From: Rhina ancylostomus
Taxonomy: Eukaryota
Direction of reading: 5' to 3'
Assembly: GCA_030265395.1 (NCBI GenBank)
Contig: JARFYF010000051.1
Location: 28,802,678 to 28,866,677, forward strand
Length of the DNA: 64,000 nt
The position numbers were made by a program, and so were the translations under genes. The stretch's first letter is position 1. Each line of letters begins with the position of its first letter. The notes under the pieces were generated by a model. The model was not told the origin of the DNA, made no database searches, and saw only the letters and a list, made by a program, of their open reading frames with translations. Below, piece after piece: positions 21,280 through 57,378 of this stretch.

Positions 21280-21378
21280 GGAAGCAATGTTGTGGAAGAC
21301 CAGGATTTGTTGGAGATAGGCATCCTTAATTCTTCACACAGACAACGAATTTTGCAAGCTGTTCGTGGGCTTCCTAGA
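21280..21378 (+). CDS. ANKS1B: ANKS1B coding exon, C-terminal half of SAM1 (GSNVVEDQDLLEIGILNSSHRQRILQAVRGLPR)
   Basis: Long polypyrimidine tract then ttccag|GGA; 99 nt open; AGA|gtgagt donor. Peptide matches recalled ANKS1B SAM1 (GSNVMEDQDLLEIGILNSGHRQRILQA). Confidence 0.96.
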
Positions 21379-24420: not shown

Positions 24421-24573
24421 GTGAAGGTTATTGGATATGATACAAACAGTCCAACGTCTGTGGCGGATTGGTTAGATTCTTTAGAACTGAATGATTACAT
24501 CAAGACCTTTCTGGCAAATGGTTATACGTCGATGGATCTTGTGAAAAAGCTGTGGGAAATTGAACTCATTAAT
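24421..24573 (+). CDS. ANKS1B: ANKS1B coding exon, N-terminal part of SAM2 ([51 protein letters not shown])
   Basis: ttcatttcag|GTG acceptor; 153 nt open; AAT|gtaagt donor; SAM signature SVADWL..LEL..Y...F..NGY. Confidence 0.96.
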
Positions 24574-28828: not shown

Positions 28829-29020
28829 AAAAAACAGAAAATGCTGGATAAACTCAGCAGGTCAAACAGCATTTGTGGAAAAAGAAACAGTCAATGTTTT
28901 GGATCTGTGACCCAAAGTATGACTGTTTCACTCTCCACAGATGTTGCCTAACCTGCTGAGTTTTTCTAGGATTTTCTGTTTTTTTATTATTTCAGATTTC
29001 CAACACTGCAGTTTTCTTTT
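28829..29020. repeat. head-to-head (inverted) pair of PLE terminal-repeat copies
   Basis: aaaaacagaaaatgctggataaactcagcaggtc...gaaacagtca pairs with tgactgtttc...acctgctgagtttttctaggattttctgttttt. Confidence 0.8.
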
Positions 29021-32000
29021 GATTTTCATACATGACATAGAAGTCATTCATTCTTTTGAATTAATAGAGAATAAATAAAGTGTGTCCATAATAATAATTC
29101 CCAGTGTTTTGACAATTGAATCAACCTGTACTTCAGAAGTTTCATTGTATGTCAAGACCAACCAGGTATGTTTCTTCATAGTTAATTATAGCTGATTGGT
29201 TAATAGTAATGGTAAACTCCACTATATGCCTGTTAATCCAGACTAATAACAAATACTGACTGTTACTTATGAGCTGAAAAAAATGGATATACAACACATT
29301 CAGTTCACGTTGGGTGAATATCTTGCATTAACATGACATTATCTTATTTGAGCACTTGGTGGTGCAGTTGCCCAAGTAACTGCATCCAATGGGAAATGCA
29401 ACTCATCAGTTTAATGATGTGAAATAATGGATAAAAAAGTGGAATTTCTGATCAATACAAGAGTATAGTAGTATCATGAGTGCTTTTTTAGCCCTCATAT
29501 ATACTATTGTGTGTGATAGCATTCAATTTGTATTCAGGTGATTTAAATTAAATTAACACATGCTGTTCCCAACTGTGTTTATGCATCAGATCACATCAAG
29601 TTATCAGAAACTAAAGTTTACTTGGCCTGTCACTGACAGAGGAGGGTGTGAGCTTTTTGGTTTCTTAATGTATGTGGCACTTATGCAGCTAAAATATTAC
29701 AGCTGTGGCACTCACACACTAAACCAAGGAATATGACACAGGATTAAAGTGTTTCTTCAATAAGTTACAGATTGAGACCATAAAGTTAGATCTCATTGTA
29801 AATATGTTTTACATGATTTTACTGGAGATAATTTTATTCATCTGTGAATAATTTCGGGGATGTTAAAAATGGAATCTTTGCTGTAGCACATATGATATTT
29901 TAGAAATATGTATAAACTTGATTATTTGCTTTCAGATATAAATGCAAAATCTACTAAATATGAATGAGTTAATAAGAACAGAACTGGTGAAGTGTTCTGA
30001 TTCCCAGGAAGTACAGATCATGTTTTAGTTCACTTAGTTGGTTGTGAATTTAGGGATTGGGTAAAAGATTAGGGGATTAAAACTGGATCTGGTTGCACTC
30101 ATTTATGCAGTGGAAAGTGGTTGCAATAAATCCAATTTAGAATCCCAGTCTCCTGCACTCAGAAGCTCTTTTGACACATATTGATTGGGATGCTGTAATA
30201 GTGCCCTCACTGATCCCTATAATTATGTATTGGGTCTTCTGAATACAAATGCCTGTTTCAGTACCCAGACCAGAAAGCAGTTCCACATCCAGCCGAACCA
30301 GCAATTATGAAAGAGACAGCAGGATCCTCCCACCAAAAACGTGACCCTTTTAGTAAAGTAATTCATTGAATTCCCCTCCTCACTCTGCTTTCTGCTTCGC
30401 CCTTCCTTCTTCCCCATTTGGGTGGCTGCAGTTCACTGTTAATATTCCATTGAGGCCAGAAGACCAGTTTGCTTTACTCTAGTCAGCAGGCTCAATGACC
30501 ACAAGCACAATCCGTTCTCCAAATCATATATGTTCATAGCCATACCAGTGATGATATTTATGTGTAACCAGAATTATATTCTAGCTGGCACCCTATGCCA
30601 ACCTTTGGGAGTGTTGCATTAGAGTAGCAATGTCGCATAGAGATGAAATTTTTAGGTTGAAATTTTAGAGTGAAGATTAACGTTCTATCTGCCTACTTCG
30701 GCAGTTCATGGCAATACTTAGGAATGAACGGCATATCTGTCAAACTTTTTCTCTTAACTAGTATCACCAAAAACTTGTTATTCAAGTTTTTGCAAGTATT
30801 GCAAAAGGTATGTGACCCATTAATAAATTTTAATTATACTGTATAAATTCATCACCCTTTTCATTTTCTTATTGATTTTCCTGTTTACTATATTTTACCA
30901 CATTAAAATATTGAACATTTGTGCCTGGGGTTTGAATTCTGGGAGTGTTTCCAATAATTGACAGAATTAATGGATTGGATAGACTAACGTGTGGATCAGG
31001 GGAGAATGAGCTCTTTTGTATTCACATTTGATTGAAGAGCATAGCAGCAGGAGAAGGCCATCGTATCCTTAAACCCTTCAATCAGTTAAGAGACAGAATA
31101 TCTGTATGTTTCTATAATATTAAGTGATCAGCAGAATACATATTTTTTTCAAGTGGTGTGTGTTTTCTAGCCTCCTACACTGCATGTGTCACTTTTTTAA
31201 GATTAATTGCATTGAGGCTTCACTCTGCATATTTCTTATTACTCAAACCTCTTGCCTTAGACAAATCCTGAATATTTTGTAACAAAATTTCATTTATTCT
31301 AAAGAAGACCTTGGAGTTACCTTGACATTATTCTTCCCAAAACTCTACATAAATCTTTCACTTTGTAAATCTCACAGATGATCTGTTTTTCCAGTTTCAC
31401 CAAGGCTGCCTTTCACCTTTGGAGGTGGACAGTTTCATCAAAGCAGAATGTGTATCATGTGTCTTCAGCAAATTTAAATACAGAAATGTATCTAAATTTG
31501 TGAAATTATTCAATAAATTCCATTTTCATTGGCATAATGTTGACAAAAGTAAGCAGAGAACAGACTTTCCTGAGTGGTTAAAAATGTTTTAACCCAACAA
31601 GTTCGGCACAAAGCCCGCTCCTCTGCTCACTCTGCTGTGATGGAGGGAGTCAGGCAGGACGCAAGGGGACGTTGGGGATGGAGGAGAGGAGTGGCAGTGG
31701 GGGAGAATGAGGATCTCAAGAGTTGGTCAGGACATTGGGGATTTTGATTGGCTACTGAAGAATGTTGGGTTGTGATCAGCTGTGGGGTATGGAGGTCACT
31801 ATTTGGTTGAAGTTAAAATATGGTAGTGGGTGTTGTGGAGGGAGGTCAGGGAGGGGTATGGTGGTGAGAGAGAGACTCGTAGAACAGGTAAAAGACAGTG
31901 GCCTACCAGTGATTCTGAATGGGTTGTGAGGCCATGCATGCAGGACTGAATTTCTCAGAAATAATGTCCAATATTGCACAGTATCTCTGCACACATCTGG

Positions 32001-32319
32001 TCTTCTTTATGCAATGTGTGTCAAAACACATGGAAATGCAGAAGCAAGTTTGAATGCTTCAGAAATCAAACTATAGATACCCAATCACTTACAGTGATGT
32101 TTTCCTTTAAAATTCTACCCCATTGTGCTGTGCAAGCATTTTCTACATCTCTTTATTTGATGAATGCAGGGTACAGCAAATACAGAGTTGAACCAAAATG
32201 TAGTTTCTAGCCTTATGTACAAGGGCATTATCCCGAGTTACAAGCACTAAAGCTCTGTATTTACCATATTTATCAAATGTCATTTTAGTAGGTGCATTTT
32301 AACATGGAGAATCTTTAAA

Positions 32320-34320
32320 TGGTTACTATGACAGCTGGAAGTTGCTATGGTGATTGTAGCACAGCAAAGAACAGACCTTCATTAGCAAATTCTATTCCCA
32401 GGTTACAACACTTAATAGTCCAGTCCTATAGGTTAATTCTCCACACAAAATATAAAGAGCTGGTGACTCATTTAGATTTGTGAAAATGGACGTGTCCTAA
32501 CCAGCCTTTGTGCGTTATTTCAATGAAAACGTTGCATTTTCTCTATCAAATATATTGCTGCTTCGCTTTTTTTGTGTGTAACGGTACGAAGAGGTTAGTG
32601 ATAATCATTGTCACCCCTTCAATGCATGCACGCATCTGTTAAATAAATGCAATGCTTCGGGGTGTCTTAATTGGCTGCAGGAGGCGAGATATTTCAGCCT
32701 TGCTGCTAACTATGCAGTTTGGTTGTCCTTAAATTGTCTCTGGAAGCACTTTAATTGGCCTTCATTTGAGGAAAGTTGTTTTTATTTTGTTGGCAGCTGT
32801 AGAAGCGAAGGTCTTTATTTTCAGGTTATTCGGTGTATTTTTCGGGCGCTTTGGGATTTTCTTTCATGGTGGATGTGAAAGTGGCATTTCTAGATGCCAT
32901 AAGCTAATTGAGCTTTCAGAGCATTGTTATGTAGCTGTGGCTGGAAGCCAAAAGTAACCACGATAAATACAATGTCTTCCAAATAAGTACAGTAAGATAT
33001 CTCTTTCTGATGGTGTGAGGAAAAGGTATCCAGTCATCTGGGTTGTGAATCAGTGCAGCAGTTTGGCTCCCTATGTGACAGAATATCCATAACAACGTGA
33101 CTGCAAAGGCACCAGTGCAGTCGAGAAAGTGTCTGCTGCTGGAGACTTATTAGAATTGTTACGGCAGCAAAACTGATGCAGGGCGAGCTCATTTTTGACC
33201 CTTAGCCAGAACAGCTGTCATTTATGTCTTGAGCCTTTTTGTCAGAATCTTTTCAAAAAAAAGTGCACGTCTAATTTTCTCTGATGCTTTGGTGTGGTGT
33301 GACGCATCGGAGGGGTAAGGTGCTCACACAGCCTGGGTTCGACTGCAGATCTTTTCTGACTGTGAAAGGATTGGGGATTCTGCATAATTCCACTCGTGCT
33401 TTGGGGGCCAGGTGAGTCATATTTAATCGTTCACTTTGAAAACTTTGAGATACTTAACGGCAGCAGATGGTCTATAAAATGGAAGGCGAGACGAGAGACA
33501 GATGCGCAGTTTTGTGATGATACAAGGGTAGGGAAAATATTCCAGCTAACGGGAACAGACCGAGAGCAGCGAGCCCTGTAGTTCTTTTTTTTCCTGACAG
33601 TTTGACAATTTTACAAGACTTGTATCTTCTGTGCACTTCTAGCTTAAGAAAAACAATGCAGCGTATCGGTGCTGTGTTTAACTGCAGTGGCTATGTAAAT
33701 AACGCATCGATGTTATTAGGTTTCTGCTGGAAGGCACGTTAACCAAGTAAGGTGATGATATCTGGCTTTGACAGCGGGAGCGAGCTGCTCCTCACCGTCT
33801 GCTGTCTCCAAGTACCGTCACTTGCCCTGTTTCAAGGGAAAATAAATGGCATAAGTTGCAGTGAGAAACTGCTTTTTGCCTCCTGCAATGTCATTTCCCA
33901 CTAACACTACTGTACAAGGTATTGTATTTAACATGCTTTGACTTCAAATTTTCAACGTGGTTCGGAGAGCGATCACTCTAGTCCTGTGCATTCGCGTTTG
34001 TACCTGCCAATAAAGCAAAGAGCAAGTATCCAATGTTTTATGCTTCGAGTGATAAAATTAACAAGTAATAAATTATGACGGCAACACCGCATATGAAAAG
34101 TATTATTAATTGAAGTGCTGATTGAAAGTAAACATCTTTTGCTGATCGGTTATTGAATAATATCTTGGATGAGTGAGCATAAACCAGATTAAGTGTAAAA
34201 CGTGGGTTACGTTATTACTGCTTATAATTTGTTGAAGTTGTCGGGTGTTTAGTTGTCCAAGGAATCTGTGCGAATGTGGTAGCTATGGTCCGCAAGGGGA
34301 CGGATTTGATAGCTGGGATT
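32320..34320 (+). promoter_or_regulatory. CpG-enriched, repeat-free intronic island; putative internal promoter / alternative first exon(s) of ANKS1B
   Basis: Hand count of about 55 CpG in 32461-34320 versus about 11 in 29000-31000. Contains X-box-like, inverted CCAAT, CRE-like, AP-1 and TATA motifs, and a consensus donor CAG|GTGAGT at 33411/33412. Confidence 0.6.
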
Positions 34321-34614
34321 TTTACATCTGAGCTTTTCTTCCAATTGATTAAAAATGTTGAAGAGGATAATTTATTTTGACTCTTATGATTTACTGGATA
34401 TTTGGTAATTTATTATTGATTTCTTTAACATTTTTATACTGTGAGCTTGCTATCAATAAATATCATTCCTTGGCAGCCATTCCAAAATTGTAGTACTGAT
34501 GAGTACCAAATATACCACAGTTGATTTGGTAATATTGGGTGTGGGGAAGTAGACTGAGTGGCAAGGTTTATTTAGATCAGCAATTCGTATCATACTGATT
34601 TTCCTTGAGTCTCA

Positions 34615-35546
34615 CTCTGCAGAGTGAGTGACCTTAAATCGTGTCCCACTGGGGATGTGATGTGTGGAGATCAGATACCTTCCCACAAGAGACTGCATTC
34701 TGAAGGACTCTGTCCATGTCCACAGTCACACAGCCTAAAATGCTAGGGACAATTTAAAACAAAAATGAGGATAATAAACATGGAAAAGTAGTATGTCCTC
34801 AAGAAAAATGATGGATACGTGTGGGGGTGGGGGGAGCAACCGCTCCTGTAACTACACCATTGCCAGAATCTTGTGTGTATGTAGTTAATGAAATGATTAG
34901 TTTAAAACTGTAAGTGAACTTAAAAAAAAATAATTTCTATTTTACTTTGCACAACCATCTACAGTTTCATTCAGGTCAACAACAAGTTGCAGCTTTGATG
35001 TTGAAAAATGCCTTAAGGAAGCATTATGTAACTTGGTTTCAAGACTGTCTCATGAGGAGAAAGAAAAGCTAAGAAATAGTGGAGGAGGCCATTTGGTCCA
35101 TTGTGCCTACTCTGCCATTCACTGAGATAATAGCTGACCTCAGAACCACTTTCCAGGACCAGCCTCCACATCCCTCGATCCCTTCAATATCTAAAAATCT
35201 ACCGGTCTCTTGAATATCCTCAGTGAACAAGTCTCCACAGCCTCCATGGGTGGTGAATTCCAAAGATTCACAACCCTTCCAGTGAAGAATCTGTCCTGAA
35301 TGGCCAACCCCTTTAAGACTGTGACCCCTGGTTCTAGCAACACCAGCCATCCTTGTAATTAACCGGTCATGCCCTATAAGAACCTTGTTTAAATGAAATC
35401 ACCTCTGCAGAGTGAGTGACTGAAACTGTGTCCCTCCGGGAATGTGATGTGTGGAGATCAGAGACCTTCCCCCAAGAGACTGCATTCTGAAGGACTCTGT
35501 CCACGTCCACAGTCACACAGCCTAAACTCCTAAGGGGCAACTAAAA
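34615..35546 (+). repeat. direct repeat of about 130-145 bp (34615-34759 and 35403-35546) around a CR1 fragment
   Basis: ctctgcagagtgagtgac...gtgatgtgtggagatcaga...caagagactgcattctgaaggactctgtcca.gtccacagtcacacagcctaaa occurs twice. Confidence 0.9.
35070..35405 (-). mobile_element. CR1 LINE 3' fragment
   Basis: Reverse strand RTRGHSLK plus CR1 3' UTR (ggaggccatttggtccattgtgcctactctgccattcactgagat). Confidence 0.8.
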
Positions 35547-47199: not shown

Positions 47200-47307
47200 G
47201 TATTGAAGATCAACCTTCTGGGTCACAGAAAACGAATCTTGGCATCACTTGGAGACAGACTTCACGACGAGCCTCCTCAGAAGCCTCCACGAACCATTAC
47301 TCTGAGG
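47200..47307 (+). CDS. ANKS1B: ANKS1B coding exon, end of SAM2 with HRKR basic/NLS motif ([36 protein letters not shown])
   Basis: ctttcag|GTA acceptor; 108 nt open; AGG|gtaagc donor; continues the previous exon in frame. Not in the ORF track; translated by hand. Confidence 0.96.
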
Positions 47308-50300
47308 GTAAGCTGTGTTCGTGCAGTGTTGAATTAATACTGTTACTCACGTGAAATATAGCTCGGTATGATTTTAATTAAAATCTTAGCCCAGCCTTCA
47401 GCATTGGCATGTGTCATTATTAGCTGCTTGCTTCGGTAATCTTTCTTGCTTCATGACCACCACCAATGTTCTTTGTTTTGTATGTGAGAATATTCCCTGA
47501 AGATCTTCCAAGCAATATTGTGAAATTAAGAGGTGGAAAAACTCCATTTCAGGTTTTTATTATTGTGACCTTTTGTTCAAATCCAGCCTGAAAAATCTAT
47601 CAAATCTTTCAGTGGATGTTAAAGAAAGAAAAATCAATAACTATTCTCATTAAAAAGTAAACTCTATTTACCACAAACGTCAAAGCCTTTCAGCTATGGT
47701 CCTGGGATTCAGATAGTCACCGAGTCAGTCTTAGCTTTAGTGTGCACCACATTTTAACCCTTCATCAACAGCACTTACATAATTACAAATCTTTTTAACA
47801 TTTATTAAATGATGTTTGCAATCTTTCAAGACATTTTAAAATTATTTAAGCTATTTGGTTCATTTTCTTAATTTTTAAAATTATTCACAGTTCATCCCGC
47901 TATGCTCTTTGTATTCAATCACTTTTTTTAGTTGATTTTATGGAGCAGAACGCACTAAAATCCTGCACAATACTAAAGGAAATCCTTAGTGAGCAGTTAA
48001 TTATACAGCCATGAAAATTCTAAGGAAGGTTTTGTGCAGACAGTATTGAACTACTAACGCATCTGCATAGTTTAAAGAATCTGGTGTATTAAGATCCCAC
48101 CCAGATCTTTCTGCCTGCTTTCAGTGGAAACAACACTTCACTGTAATTTTGTTTTGTACACCAGGCTTGTATCTTGGTCTGTTTGATTGTTTTATTTTAA
48201 TGCCTTCAGCCTAAAATGTCTTTGAAGCAATCATGGAAAGATCTTTCACAGTTGTGCTCACAGTAAAGAAAGAGAAGCACTTCCAAATAGTTGTGTATTT
48301 TTCAAATAATTCAATGTTCAGTTGAAAAGGAAATTGTGCACATGTTGGGTGTACAAGGACATAGAATATGGGAGAAGGGATTCAAGGCATATTTGAGTTA
48401 TTGCAAAAGGTTTTACATTAAACTCTTAAGTCAGATTTTAATACATATTTTAGAATATGATTTTTACCATAATTTTTGTTCATTTCTCAAACCAAAATGT
48501 CTGTTTTTAAAGCTCTGTTATATCATAGTTGGCGTTATTTTACATGTTGAAAACAGGAGCTCAAAATCCAAATGCGAGAAATCTTAAAAGTGGAGTGTTG
48601 GAATTATTTATCTTCCAGTTTCCAGTTCTAATAAATGGTTTACTTTGGAAACATTAGCCCATCTTTTCTTTCTTCAGGTGTTACTGTGTATTTCTACCAT
48701 TTTACTTTGCTTTAAATTGAATTCTGTCATTTTCTTTTTTAAAAAAAAGCAGAAATAATAACTGTTTCCAGGCCAATATTTGGGGATTCATAGAAATGTA
48801 TCCACAGATCTGTGTAACTTACATGGAACTGTTTGTGCATTCAGATCCGCTTCCCACTTTTGGAAGCAAATGGTGTTAATTCTCGTGCAAACCATTAGGT
48901 GAAGCAGTATGCTGTGATAGGACCCTCCATCTTGGAAGGAGGGAACAACTGATGAGTGGTGGAAGCAGTAGCCACTCATACTAGGTGCTATTCAGATTGG
49001 ATCTCTTTTTATATCAATAGGTCAGTTGTCCTGAATCCCGCAATGCCATCTTGCAAGATGATGTATATATCGTATCTTGGATGGTAAGTCACCTCTGAAG
49101 TAAGCTGGACAACGTGGAAATGAGGCCTTCTCCCCACAATAAAGTGCACGTATGCTTCCGAATTTTTGGATACCTGCCTTCACCGCAGGATGTAATTACT
49201 TCTACGCCATGCTTTTCCCAAGAAACATTAAACTCGAAACTCTAGTGAGGGGCAGATGTCGGTCTTTGTACCTCCCTATCTTGAAAGGGGTTGTCCAACT
49301 TTTGTCACATGTTTATGTCATCCTGAAAATGAAATTTCATTTCATATGTTTATTATAGGAAATACTGTGAAAGCCATTGTTTTAACAAACAGTTTCAAAT
49401 CCCTGAGACCACTAATTGTGATTAAAAGCAATTTTTTTGTTGTTGTGTGTATTCCTTTCTCTGCTACACAATGATCATCTGCCAACAGAAAGTGAGCACG
49501 ACTTTTCAAGTAACAGAAGACTGACTGTGAATTCCAAGTGCAGTTCCTTTTCAGAGGAACTCTTTTTGTGTTTATAGTTATTGCATGTCTGGACCGTCTG
49601 CAGCTTGTAATATGCAAAGGCTAATGTGGCAAATACAAATGGCCTAACTGCTAAGACTTTAGAGCTGTTCTCACGTCAGATAAACACCCTGCTCCCTCTC
49701 CACCCCGACCCTGTTTTTTAAAAAAAAATGTACCTAATATTGTTGTCCTTGGGTTGGTGATGTTTTTGCATAATGTCTGTCACTGAATTCATTTCAGATG
49801 GCCTCAGGGTGCAAAGGGAAACGTAGATAATTGAAGATGCATAACCCTAAAAATATTGAAGAGTGAATATTGAAAAGTGCCATTTGAATTGTTTCTAGAT
49901 ATTTGGCCCTGGGAAACAGTTAATAAATCAACATTTCTACTGGAGCTTTCATTCAGATCATACTGATTTCATACTTTTTGTCATGATTTTTTTTTTTGAC
50001 ACCGCACTTAATAATAACCCAGTTGTAAGTAAATGTTTTAATTAGTAATTTGGTTAATATCATAGCAAATAATACTTCAGATTTTCAATAACTTACAATG
50101 CCAGATCAGTGGAGGAGAACATGCCCTGTGCTGCGTTACTTCTCTTTGGTTGAACTGACCAGATGTGACTGGAGTAGTCTAATTCCAGAAATATAATGCT
50201 GTAAATATTTGTGCTGTTTCTGACTTCGTAACCAGTTGGAAAGATACGCAAGAGTTAGTGAAAGGATTAAGCTGCATTATTTGAGTGAGAGGCTCATATA

Positions 50301-52690: not shown

Positions 52691-52870
52691 GACCCTGGGA
52701 ACAACACTCCTCCTCAACTTTCCCCATCCCTTAGCCAAAGCACTTACACTGGTGGCTCTCTTGATATCCCCTCTTCCCATTTAATGATGCAAGGGGACGC
52801 AAGAAGGCGAATCAATGACAGCTACTTTGAGGATATGCCTAGGTCAAAACTGGAAAGACAAATGGCTCAG
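52691..52870 (+). CDS. ANKS1B: ANKS1B coding exon, SAM-PTB linker (DPGNNTPPQLSPSLSQSTYTGGSLDIPSSHLMMQGDARRRINDSYFEDMPRSKLERQMAQ)
   Basis: gaacag|GAC acceptor; 180 nt open; CAG|gtaaat donor. The MQGDARRR...PRSKLERQMAQ segment is what I recall as distinguishing ANKS1B from ANKS1A. Confidence 0.95.
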
Positions 52871-53430: not shown

Positions 53431-53554
53431 GCTTTTGGCTATTCTCTTTATGGCACTTAAGACATTTTCATATTATTAGGTGTTTTCTATATTGTTTTGG
53501 ATATCCAGATGTCTAAAGTGCACACAACTATTCATGAAACTTCTTAAAAAATTT

Positions 53555-53942
53555 TAAATTTTATTTACAGCGTGGTAACAGGCCCTTCCAGCCCAACGAG
53601 TCCACGCCGCCCATTTTAAACCCCAAATNNNNNNNNNNNNNNNNNNNNNNNNNNNNNNNNNNNNNNNNNNNNNNNNNNNNNNNNNNNNNNNNNNNNNNNN
53701 NNNNNNNNNNNNNNNNNNNNNNNNNNNNTTACAGCGTGGTAACAGGCCCTTCCAGCCCAACGAGTCCACGCCGCCCATTTTAAACCCCAAATTAACCTAC
53801 CCGTAGGTCTTTCGAATGTGGGAGGAAACCCACGCAGACACGGGAGAACGTACAAACTCCTAACAGACAGCGACGGGAATCGAACCCCGATCGCTGGTGC
53901 TATAATAGCTTTGCGCTGATCACTACGCTACCGTGCTGCCCC
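53555..53942 (-). mobile_element. young V-SINE (HE1-like) with intact A/B boxes; tail duplicated across a 100-N gap
   Basis: Reverse reads GGGCAGCACGGTAGCGTAGTG...GGTTCGATTCCCG...GGAGTTTGTACGTTCTCCCGTGTCTGCGTGGGTTTCCTCCCACATTC...TGGGCTGGAAGGGCCTGTTACCACGCTGTAAATAAAA; CpGs retained. Confidence 0.92.
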
Positions 53943-53976
53943 CAAAATCAAACCCACAAATGTAAAAATCCTCAGA

Positions 53977-54092
53977 TGTCAGAAGTGGGATTCAAACCCA
54001 CGGCCCCCAGTTGGAGACTCGAACACTCCTGTTTCTCTGGAAGCAATTCCATTCCTTGAGTCTGGCGCCTTAGACCACATGGCCACCCTGAC
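53977..54092 (-). tRNA. tRNA-Leu(CAA), intron-containing, probably a pseudogene
   Basis: Reverse complement reads GTCAGGGTGGCCATGTGGTCTAAGGCGCCAGACTCAAG, a 31-nt intron, then TTCGAGTCTCCAACTGGGGGCCGTGGGTTTGAATCCCACTTCTGACA, followed by TCTGAGGATTTTT. It matches the vertebrate Leu-CAA layout but has lesions in the D arm, anticodon stem and T-loop (TTCGAA>TTTGAA). Confidence 0.9.
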
Positions 54093-56640
54093 AGGTATGT
54101 TTTTTAAAAATATGTGAGCCAAAGGTCTATTTAGCTGACAATTTTAGGACCTACACCACAAACCTAAAATGAAAGAAGTATGGACATTAGTAGTATATTA
54201 AGACCAGTGAACAATGGTGAACTACTTGTGGCTTGTCCAGCTGAGGCCACCTTATTCAAAGGGGCATTGATTTGCACACCTGGCTGAAGTTGGCAGAATT
54301 CCAATTGCAAATGACTGGAATTTTTTTTGCCCCTTCCGGGTTCCCCTATGAACCAGTTGGAAGATAGTTTGGCAATAATAATGACAAATTTTGCAGAACT
54401 ACTTATTTTGGGTATCAGGTCATATCACCGGGTCTTCTACAGAGGTTTCATTTTGTTCCAAACCTCCATTGCCAGGCAAGCGAAGCCATAAACCCTCTGC
54501 TGAGCTTTCATCTCTTGCCTCTCCCTGTTGCTATCCTGCAGATACCCCTTCCCAGTACAGATGTCACGTGTGAGCATGNNNNNNNNNNNNNNNNNNNNNN
54601 NNNNNNNNNNNNNNNNNNNNNNNNNNNNNNNNNNNNNNNNNNNNNNNNNNNNNNNNNNNNNNNNNNNNNNNNNNNNNNNNNNNNNNNNNNNNNNNNNNNN
54701 TTACATGAGCACTAAAGCTGGTGGGGATTCTTCACGGAGCTGGTTCCTGTAACATTTATAATGATTTGAAGCTTGTTGTAGAGAGTCAGGGCTAACATTT
54801 CAAAAATTCCCTGTGAATAAAATATTGGCAGCTCAACAGTCAGCATCGTGAAGATGGTGAAGACCTCTCCAGTACATTAAGTCCTCTGAACAATGATAAA
54901 CTAATTGCTTGTCCAGTTGGACCACCCTAACCATTGCCTCAAATAGGAAGGGGGATTCGTGCAACTCAGCACAAAAATAAACTGAGTGCACCCTCTGACG
55001 TAAGGCAACGAAGAAAAATAAAAGAAGTCAAGGATAAGAAATGTGTACTTGGTGCATCAAAAATGATCATTCCAGTGATCCAGATGACCGTTCATTGTAC
55101 CTAATTTACTTTGGCAATTATCATACTTAGTGGTCTGATCAGGCCAGTGCATTATAAACTCTCAACATGATCTCCTGGAGTTTCATACTCTGTTGCAATT
55201 CTGTTTGCTTTTTATTGTTTCTCCACATTGCCTCGACTTTGAAATTGATAAATATACTGCAAGATTCTGGCCCTTAGTTACCCTTTGTTTAACCTCTAAA
55301 CTTCATGGTGGTACTTTGCCACTTTTCACTTTGCTCAGTATGCAGTCTTTTGTTAATATTAAATATAATTTGTCATTTGATTCTTGAAGAGCATAACTGA
55401 TCCTAATCTAATTAAGAATTGTTGCCTGACTCATCTGGTCTATCTCATTTTGGTATTTTCTTCAAACTTGGTATACTTATCTCTTATTTGCATCCGCATA
55501 TTATGTGGTAAAGAAATATTGGTATTTTAAACAGAGATCCTTGTGGTACTCTGCTGCAGATTTCCTCCCTAATCTGCATATCCCAGGGGCATGCTTGTGT
55601 TGTAACCTGTCCACACTCTATTGAATGATATGGAAGGGTTTTTTTTGTTGAAGATCTAACTGGGGGGAAAAAAAACTTTAGAAGGATTTTCACCAGCTGA
55701 GTTTAAATACTCCTCAAACAATATGAGGATGTTTGACAAGAAACGCCATTATTAGTTCATGTTGTTGATCATAGATACTGCCCAACACACACATTTTGCA
55801 TTATTTTATCTGCTTTTGGTGTGTGGCAAAGGACCTCTAGTCAATTGAGAAAAAAATGCTTAATTTTCTTTGTTTAAAATCTCTCTGTCCCCAGTGATGC
55901 TTTAATAATAATAGCCAATATCCTGCAGCACTCTGGGATACATGATAATCATTCAAACTACTGCTTTTTTTTTCCATAAGCTGTGCTTTTTATGCAAGTA
56001 AGCCTTGTACAGGTTGCTCTTTCTTATGCTTTAGTTGCCCCATTCATACTTTTTGACATGTACTTGTCTTGCATTTTTAATATTTTAAACTTTTCAATTT
56101 TCTGCAATTGATTTATTTCATTGAATAATATTCTGCTTGATATTTCATCCCATTTGAACCTTGCTTTAGTAAAATAGTATTTCCATTCTAATCCACAACA
56201 ATACTGGTTGCTAGAATGTTTTAACCACTCACCACTGTATGAGATAACGTGCAACTTTTTCTTTTATTCTCTTCACTTGAAACCAATTATGTTACTGTTG
56301 TAGAAATTAAATTAGCATTTTTTTCTAGTTCAGCAATGGGTCATTGAAATGTTGCATTGAATAAGGGATATATACAAAGAAAAGTACATCGGTCTATCGG
56401 GCTCTGCTCGATTCCATGATTATTTATAATTATCAATGCAAGCTTTCTGCATGCCTTATCTTGAATTGGATGTACTCTGATCACAGCTGGGCTTGAGTGG
56501 CCTGCATACAAAAGGACTTCAGTGGCAAAATAAATATCACTACTAATTCATTTTTACACACATCAATATTTTTATAAGCATTCTTGGCTAAGCTGCCACA
56601 GGTTCAGATTTCCCCGGCCTAATTTTACTTTCCTATTCAG

Positions 56641-56769
56641 CAGGCGGAATGGAGTGAGCCTTCTATTACTCTTCGGCCTCCAAATGAAGCCACATCATCA
56701 ACGCCTGTGCAGTACTGGCAACATCATCCTGAGAAACTGATTTTTCAGTCCTGTGACTATGAAGCATAT
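56641..56769 (+). CDS. ANKS1B: ANKS1B coding exon leading into the PTB domain ([43 protein letters not shown])
   Basis: cctattcag|CAG|GCG tandem acceptor; 129 nt open; TAT|gtaagt donor. Confidence 0.95.
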
Positions 56770-57306: not shown

Positions 57307-57378
57307 TATTTAGGTTCTATGTTGGTGAAGGAATTGCGAGGAACAGAATCAACACAAGATGCATGTTCTAAGATGCGG
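57307..57378 (+). CDS. ANKS1B: ANKS1B coding exon, PTB domain ([24 protein letters not shown])
   Basis: gtttag|TAT acceptor; 72 nt open; CGG|gtatgt donor; PTB YLGS motif. Confidence 0.95.

Follow-up and report, generated by a model that had tools for sequence, protein, structure and literature searches.

A GC-poor, CpG-rich block in the SAM2-splitting intron of ANKS1B in Rhina ancylostomus: a candidate internal promoter for a PTB-only form of AIDA-1

The window considered here, a stretch of 64,000 nucleotides of the Rhina ancylostomus genome, carries exons of ANKS1B, the gene encoding AIDA-1 (Table 1; exons are designated below by their first position). The original prediction had named this gene, and its identity is borne out by the translation of exon 52691-52870, which is 98-100% identical to shark and ray ANKS1B. 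As had also been proposed, the intron at 24574-47199 separates the two parts of SAM2, and it houses the CpG-rich block that is the subject of this study. The start of the AIDA-1c/d forms is found 11.6 kb upstream of the window, in a region where the CpG observed/expected ratio (o/e) is 0.19-0.35 in 500-base bins, with no CpG excess. Exon 1 of ANKS1B was found neither in 784 kb of the contig nor in a search of the genome whose initial step was more stringent, so that the main promoter provides no firm control. At the exon leading into the PTB domain, a tandem CAGCAG acceptor (56638-56643) can add or drop one Gln, and both forms occur in the proteins of relatives.

Table 1. Features of the ANKS1B locus discussed in the text (positions in the window)
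Feature	Position	Strand	Remarks
ANKS1B exon	21280-21378		Mapped
ANKS1B exon, first part of SAM2	24421-24573	+	Upstream of the block; would be absent from the short transcript
Pair of X-box-like 14-mers	32322-32354	+	Each with 2 mismatches from the consensus; some 1.07 kb before the donor
GC-poor CpG-retaining block	32490-34312	.	55 CpG; o/e 0.71; GC 41.8%; 1823 bases
Out-of-frame ATG, weak context	33284-33286	+	In a transcript that starts further upstream, would open an upstream ORF of 44 codons with its end at 47206
Alternative exon, 3′ part	33320-33411	+	Untranslated; putative first exon, 5′ end at or upstream of 33320; leader of P0331
TAA stop in the ANKS1B frame	33385-33387	+	Lies in the alternative exon; P0331 has Gln instead
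Splice donor CAG/GTGAGT	33409-33417	+	Joined to exon 47200 in P0331; 9/9 consensus
TATAAAA	33473-33479	+	62 bases downstream of the donor, intronic; chance level
ANKS1B exon, end of SAM2	47200-47307	+	ATG-free in all frames; 5′ UTR in the predicted short transcript
Cassette exon	49021-49083	+	63 bases; last codon is an in-frame ATG (MDPGNN models)
Exon with ATG 52784 (MMQG) and ATG 52787 (MQG, better context)	52691-52870	+	Skipped in some isoforms
Exon leading into the PTB domain	56641-56769	+	
PTB exon with ATG 57319 (MLVKELRG)	57307-57378	+	Start if 49021 and 52691 are skipped; PTB then cut at its N-terminus

CpG density in the block had been said to rise about five-fold with no clear rise in GC content. 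The rise is real, and the underlying counts were reproduced: 55 CpGs at 32320-34320 versus 11 at 29000-31000. The five-fold figure stands against this flank, which is unusually poor (35% GC), but the enrichment is only about three-fold when the whole window (582 CpGs in 62,420 bases) serves as the baseline. The GC content increases little, from 38.9% in the window to 41.5% at 32320-34320, with an o/e of 0.25 and 0.65, respectively. The CpGs of the block itself extend from 32491 to 34301. When the CpGs of the window were placed at random (2000 trials), at most 40 fell within 1823 bases, versus 54 observed. Among 4317 windows of 1.8 kb along the ANKS1B gene body, the block ranks first with a sliding o/e of 0.69, the best value outside the block being 0.47 and the median 0.22. 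On the other hand, the excess of TpG and CpA is just slightly lower in the block (1.24 versus 1.32) and 20 of 238 windows are equally low, which counts against the promoter reading. A single ORF of at least 80 codons overlaps the block, a 98-codon stop-to-stop frame at 32582-32878, and Rfam gave no match within 31500-35000.

According to the Gardiner-Garden rule, a CpG island is longer than 200 bases, with an o/e above 0.6 and a GC content above 50%. The block has the length and the o/e of such an island (1823 bases, 0.71), and its GC content stays below the threshold, both overall (41.8%) and in the richest 500-base bin (45.4%). In zebrafish, unmethylated islands combine a high o/e with a GC content resembling that of their surroundings, and the non-methylated islands of cold-blooded vertebrates, with their near-background GC, are likewise missed by classical rules, as described in the accessible parts of Long et al. 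(2013; PMC3583005). The block is of this type, its o/e being well above background (0.69 versus a median of 0.22) and its GC content close to it (42% versus 39%). The published islands were defined by a measured absence of methylation, the block by its CpG content; unlike islands of the PMC3583005 type, it is intragenic and away from the main gene start. A lack of germ-line methylation over the region would account for the persistence of the CpGs of the block.

The block had further been described as devoid of recognisable repeats, in agreement with its copy number. A search of the animal's own genome (which skips very common words) returned one match, blastn against 784 kb of the contig returned no other match, and the contig depth (run X1) is 2.6-7.3 across the block versus 135-42,000 at the repeats located 1-2 kb downstream. 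A transposable element, expected in multiple copies, was rejected on these three observations. That the block is a young insertion or repeat, in which CpGs have not yet decayed, might be imagined from the overlap of several other CpG-rich stretches of the 784 kb with repeats. Such an origin is extremely improbable, and largely refuted, in view of the single genome match, the lack of any other match in the 784 kb, the single-copy depth and the conservation of part of the block in another species.

A transcript leaving the block and joining exon 47200, the central element of the original prediction, is supported by one record from a relative. P0331 is a Logan protein of elasmobranch type, encoded by a 2206-base contig and found among the members of the elasmobranch ANKS1B cluster. 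Because it joins exons that are kilobases apart in the present genome, P0331 must come from a spliced sequence. In this protein, 32 residues unrelated to SAM2 precede exon 47200. The last 13 codons of this leader fit positions 33373-33411 with four single-base changes in 39 nucleotides, and the match ends exactly at the donor 33411/33412. Over about 1.57 million positions (784 kb, both strands), the next-best fit requires 8 changes; over the 1346 GT-anchored sites of the intron, it requires 13, and the BLOSUM score is 42 versus 15 for the next candidate. The donor is one of the two full-consensus donors among the 1353 GT sites of the intron. It should be kept in mind that this junction is documented by a single record, from a species other than Rhina ancylostomus. 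Among the 15 stored proteins having a non-SAM2 sequence before exon 47200, P0331 matches the block and the other 14 do not, and a search with residues 1-40 of P0331 gave no further record.

A second piece of the P0331 leader fits 33323-33352, in a frame that differs from that of 33373-33411. From this difference and from the TAA at 33385, it follows that the coding character of the exon is not conserved and that the exon is untranslated here; the same stop led us to reject an in-frame N-terminal extension supplied by the alternative exon in Rhina ancylostomus. Within the block, o/e is 0.56 upstream of the donor and 0.87 downstream. A CpG island is expected over the first exon and the first intron of a transcript, and the higher density just 3′ of the donor fits such an arrangement.

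The motifs listed in the original prediction are all present at the positions given, and they fare unequally when set against 1000 dinucleotide-shuffled versions of the block. CCAAT (5 observed versus 4.9 expected, P 0.55) and the CRE-like word (1, P 0.42) occur at chance frequency, which weakens the case made from the motifs. TATAAAA, also at chance level (1, P 0.46), was rejected as the core promoter of the alternative exon, being located downstream of the donor. Two AP-1 words are found (P 0.04), the second of which, at 33413, belongs to the splice donor. X-box-like sites with at most two mismatches occur twice (P 0.002 for a pattern chosen post hoc), just outside the CpG-rich part that begins at 32491, and six distinct sites are found in the window. 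An identical 9-mer surrounds both ATTGG sites (32667-32675 and 32751-32759), 84 bases apart (P 0.003, again post hoc); its likeness to a homeodomain site is no less than that to an NF-Y site. In mouse, among the rows listed from Table S8 of PMC7498320, one RFX1 and one RFX3 peak are tied to Anks1b; they lie 340 kb upstream from the TSS employed in that study and give no support to a role of the X-box pair.

Regulation by neuronal activity, as had been suggested for the transcript, is unsupported. The CRE-like and CCAAT words are at chance level, no excess of CRE or AP-1 was seen near the start (CRE-like P 0.42; one AP-1 word besides that of the donor), and there is no CpG island at the neuronal AIDA-1c/d start. 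The germ-line CpG signature of the block, absent from the neuronal start, would if anything point to a broader expression. We regard as evenly balanced the proposal that the short form is present in more kinds of cells than is the neuronal AIDA-1c/d. The activity-linked splicing described in the available part of 10.64898/2026.06.09.731204 concerns another exon of Anks1b.

Which start codon would be used depends on the cassette exons. With 49021 skipped, exon 47200 and the first 93 bases of exon 52691 (201 exonic bases in all, up to 52783) are free of ATG. The first in-frame ATG had been placed at MMQGDARRR, and this holds if exon 52691 comes next after the alternative exon and exon 47200 (start at 52784, in a weak context). 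With the cassette exon 49021-49083 retained, an earlier start, MDPGNN, becomes available at 49081; with both 49021 and 52691 skipped, as in P0331, translation would begin at 57319 (MLVKELRG), inside the PTB domain. The cassette exon also contains three out-of-frame ATGs (49043, 49058, and 49061). They share one upstream ORF, the stop of which overlaps the MMQG start codon (52782-52786). Together with the out-of-frame ATG at 33284 and the weak context at 52784, these ATGs possibly limit translation of the short form. The cassette exon 49021-49083 was seen only in records of cartilaginous fish.

Proteins with precisely these starts are annotated. PTB-only ANKS1B models beginning with MMQG, MQG, MDPG, or MLVK are found across cartilaginous fish, teleosts, amphibians, and human. 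Among 414 stored proteins, a set gathered by our own queries and not a random sample, 63 start with M(M)QxDxRRR, 7 with MDPGNN, and 9 with MLxKELRG. The cartilaginous fish account for 11 short models (P0333-P0335, P0337, P0342, P0359, P0368, P0372, P0374, P0379, and P0405), distributed as 7 MDPG, 1 MMQG, 1 MQG, and 2 MLVK. The ray protein P0372 starts exactly with MMQGDARRR, as do proteins of many other vertebrates, and species from chimaera to human share the MQG start. Human members of the short-start set are the curated isoforms ff (NP_001339148.1) and hh (NP_001339152.1). The short models are known as proteins, and most of them are automatic predictions.

In line with the PTB-only product that had been proposed, Pfam detected PTB and no SAM domain in the 8 short forms scanned (8/8), a SAM domain being found in a 422-residue control. 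The PF00640 profile is covered from 1 to 139 in P0372 and P0342 and from 44 to 139 in P0333; the 188-residue models thus lack the first 43 of the 140 positions of the PTB profile. The PTB domain of the short form matches the solved chains 8ym2_A and 2m38_A. The annotated PTB-only proteins (human ff, hh, and mm, the latter being NP_001339146.1; ray P0372; chimaera P0405) share with the form predicted here the MQG/MMQG and MLxKELRG starts and a PTB domain devoid of SAM domains or ankyrin repeats. In contrast with these annotations, a candidate first exon and a GC-poor island can here be placed in a cartilaginous fish, and the MDPG start of the cassette exon, limited to cartilaginous-fish records, comes in addition.

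The AIDA-1 forms described in the literature are of another kind. At least five isoforms are reported, all of which hold two SAM domains according to the parts of PMC3683042 available to us, and the accessible texts of PMC4565644 and PMC6684583 also give two SAM domains for the described isoforms; in that of PMC1097723, only some AIDA-1 isoforms carry SAM. AIDA-1a, 1c, 1d, and 1e, as presented in the accessible portions of PMC1097723, PMC4565644, and PMC6684583, resemble the form predicted here in having an internal ANKS1B start, no ankyrin repeats, and a PTB domain. They keep both SAM domains, however, and originate in the CpG-poor region mentioned above, 11.6 kb upstream of the window, whereas the predicted form would be SAM-less. 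In Western blots of human and mouse brain, AIDA-1B, 1C, and 1D are given as the main forms (PMC6684583, in part). The PTB domain of AIDA-1 binds NxxY peptides, for instance that of APP (PMC3683042, in part). Within the coverage of our literature search, outside which most subscription papers fall, no study of a PTB-only AIDA-1 or of its promoter was found, and the supplements of PMC5838959 gave no match to ANKS1B.

Position chr12:99288805 would lie within the SAM2-splitting intron of human ANKS1B. An array probe at this position is labelled ANKS1B TSS200 in a table of PMC10304605, seen in excerpt; the label marks an internal TSS in a gene that also has annotated PTB-only isoforms.

Amphibians offer another view of the short form. 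The frog and salamander ANKS1B models listed (35 members of the amphibian clusters P0133, P0135, and P0223) are 183-371 residues long, PTB-only where scanned, and most begin with MMQG; the frog X1 models have 295-296 residues and three salamander models, without isoform number, have 267. No SAM-bearing amphibian ANKS1B was present among the matches listed (the best 120 of 818 and the best 120 of 431), which is weak evidence of absence in a sample made of frogs and salamanders. Full-length ANKS1B is reported to be absent in Xenopus, as far as the accessible text and review file of PMC7840914 go. The long form thus appears, from these protein models, to have been lost in frogs and salamanders. 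Five frog proteins have longer leaders; the residues before MMQG in these proteins diverge from those of the long form and lack the end of SAM2. That the MMQG start is kept behind such a diverged leader implies that selection acts on the short protein. The short unit thus seems able to exist on its own, under selection, and its expression may be linked to the promoter of the block. The PTB-only models of Xenopus anks1b resemble the short form predicted here, with the difference that the latter is nested in an intact long gene, unlike the situation in Xenopus, without full-length ANKS1B (PMC7840914, in part). In the accessible text of PMC7840914, the frog gene is not connected with an internal promoter.

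Two other ways of accounting for the exon and the block may be envisaged. In one of them, the exon would be an internal poison cassette, inserted between the SAM2 exons of longer transcripts and leading through its stop or a frameshift to decay or truncation, and the block would be an unmethylated enhancer or an orphan island. A cassette exon is conceivable because the exon is preceded by AG sites whose pyrimidine tracts (12/17) are comparable to those of the real acceptors of this gene (10-15). The tracts of the candidate acceptors (33205, 33209, 33245, and 32796) are as good as some real ones, and the stop at 33385 is in frame; moreover, intergenic unmethylated islands often mark enhancers (PMC3583005, in the parts available). 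Nevertheless, these acceptors are unremarkable, 58 of the 727 YAG sites of the intron scoring as well. Short models with downstream starts occur throughout the vertebrates, the human gene has an annotated internal TSS (PMC10304605, table), and a contig assembled through the junction would better suit a main path than a decayed minor form. We therefore hold the poison-cassette reading to be unlikely.

It may also be imagined that the promoter is real but yields little stable PTB-only protein, because of upstream ORFs, weak starts, and exon skips that truncate the PTB domain, its role being regulatory, on upstream transcripts or on chromatin. The upstream ORFs and weak start contexts described above are consistent with such a situation, as are the 188-residue models with their incomplete PTB profile and the brain Western blots, in which no such band is named as a main form (PMC6684583, in part). 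Yet the MQG start is conserved from chimaera to human, the listed frog and salamander models of 183-371 residues in many cases begin at the same Met, and the diverged leader of the frog proteins implies selection on the short protein. This reading appears very unlikely.

The explanation that we prefer, and consider probable, is that the block is an unmethylated internal promoter, the transcript of which would yield an AIDA-1 lacking the ankyrin repeats and both SAM domains. Transcription would start upstream of 33320, and the untranslated exon would be spliced from the donor 33411/33412 to exon 47200. Ribosomes would pass this ATG-free exon and start at 49081 (MDPG), 52784/52787 (MMQG/MQG), or 57319 (MLVK), the choice being set by the cassette exons retained. 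The product would bind cargo of the NPxY type through its PTB domain without SAM-based coupling, and would function as a small independent adaptor or as a competitor. The nuclear import signal of AIDA-1 resides in SAM2. As exon 47200 would be untranslated, this signal would be lost.

With somewhat more in its favour than against it, a broader proposal is that of an ancient gene within a gene. A CpG-island promoter in the SAM2 intron would have been kept since the ancestor of jawed vertebrates and would drive a PTB-only adaptor under its own selection; this adaptor would be the sole part of ANKS1B kept by frogs and salamanders, and most 5′ deletions of the human ANKS1B syndrome would leave it intact. 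Provided that the promoter and the human internal start are orthologous, an AIDA-1 without SAM domains would have been kept for more than 400 million years, with a bearing on the interpretation of deletions and knock-outs of ANKS1B and on the question of why the long form is dispensable in frogs. The database isoform, GC-poor islands, and internal promoters as kinds were already known, and an intragenic GC-poor island serving as alternative promoter is an ordinary kind of element. New are the mapping, in a cartilaginous fish, of the exon with its donor and the connection with the gene of amphibians. With them, isoforms that existed as automatic database entries become a testable unit.

Some other observations concern related loci and other CpG-rich stretches of the genome. 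A paralogue on the minus strand at G000:C53:28432544-28492158, probably ANKS1A, shows a 61% match to the 70 N-terminal residues of AIDA-1c/d, hinting at a similar SAM-SAM-PTB short form in this ANKS1A-like gene. In its equivalent SAM2-splitting intron (2.6 kb), no 1-kb bin has an o/e of 0.45 or more. A GC-poor CpG-rich stretch at G000:C51:28265578-28269077, to which no gene is assigned, has an o/e of 0.69 over 3.5 kb, a GC content of 40%, and 16% repeats. Inside the window, one bin (53501-54000) reaches an o/e of 1.0; unlike the block, it overlaps repeats, with 41 other matches in the 784 kb. Finally, at about 90 kb upstream of the first ANKS1B exon mapped on G000:C51, there is a partly readable CpG-rich stretch that reaches 65% GC and contains GC-box and CRE-like words. 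As no other place was found for exon 1, this stretch may be the main promoter of ANKS1B.
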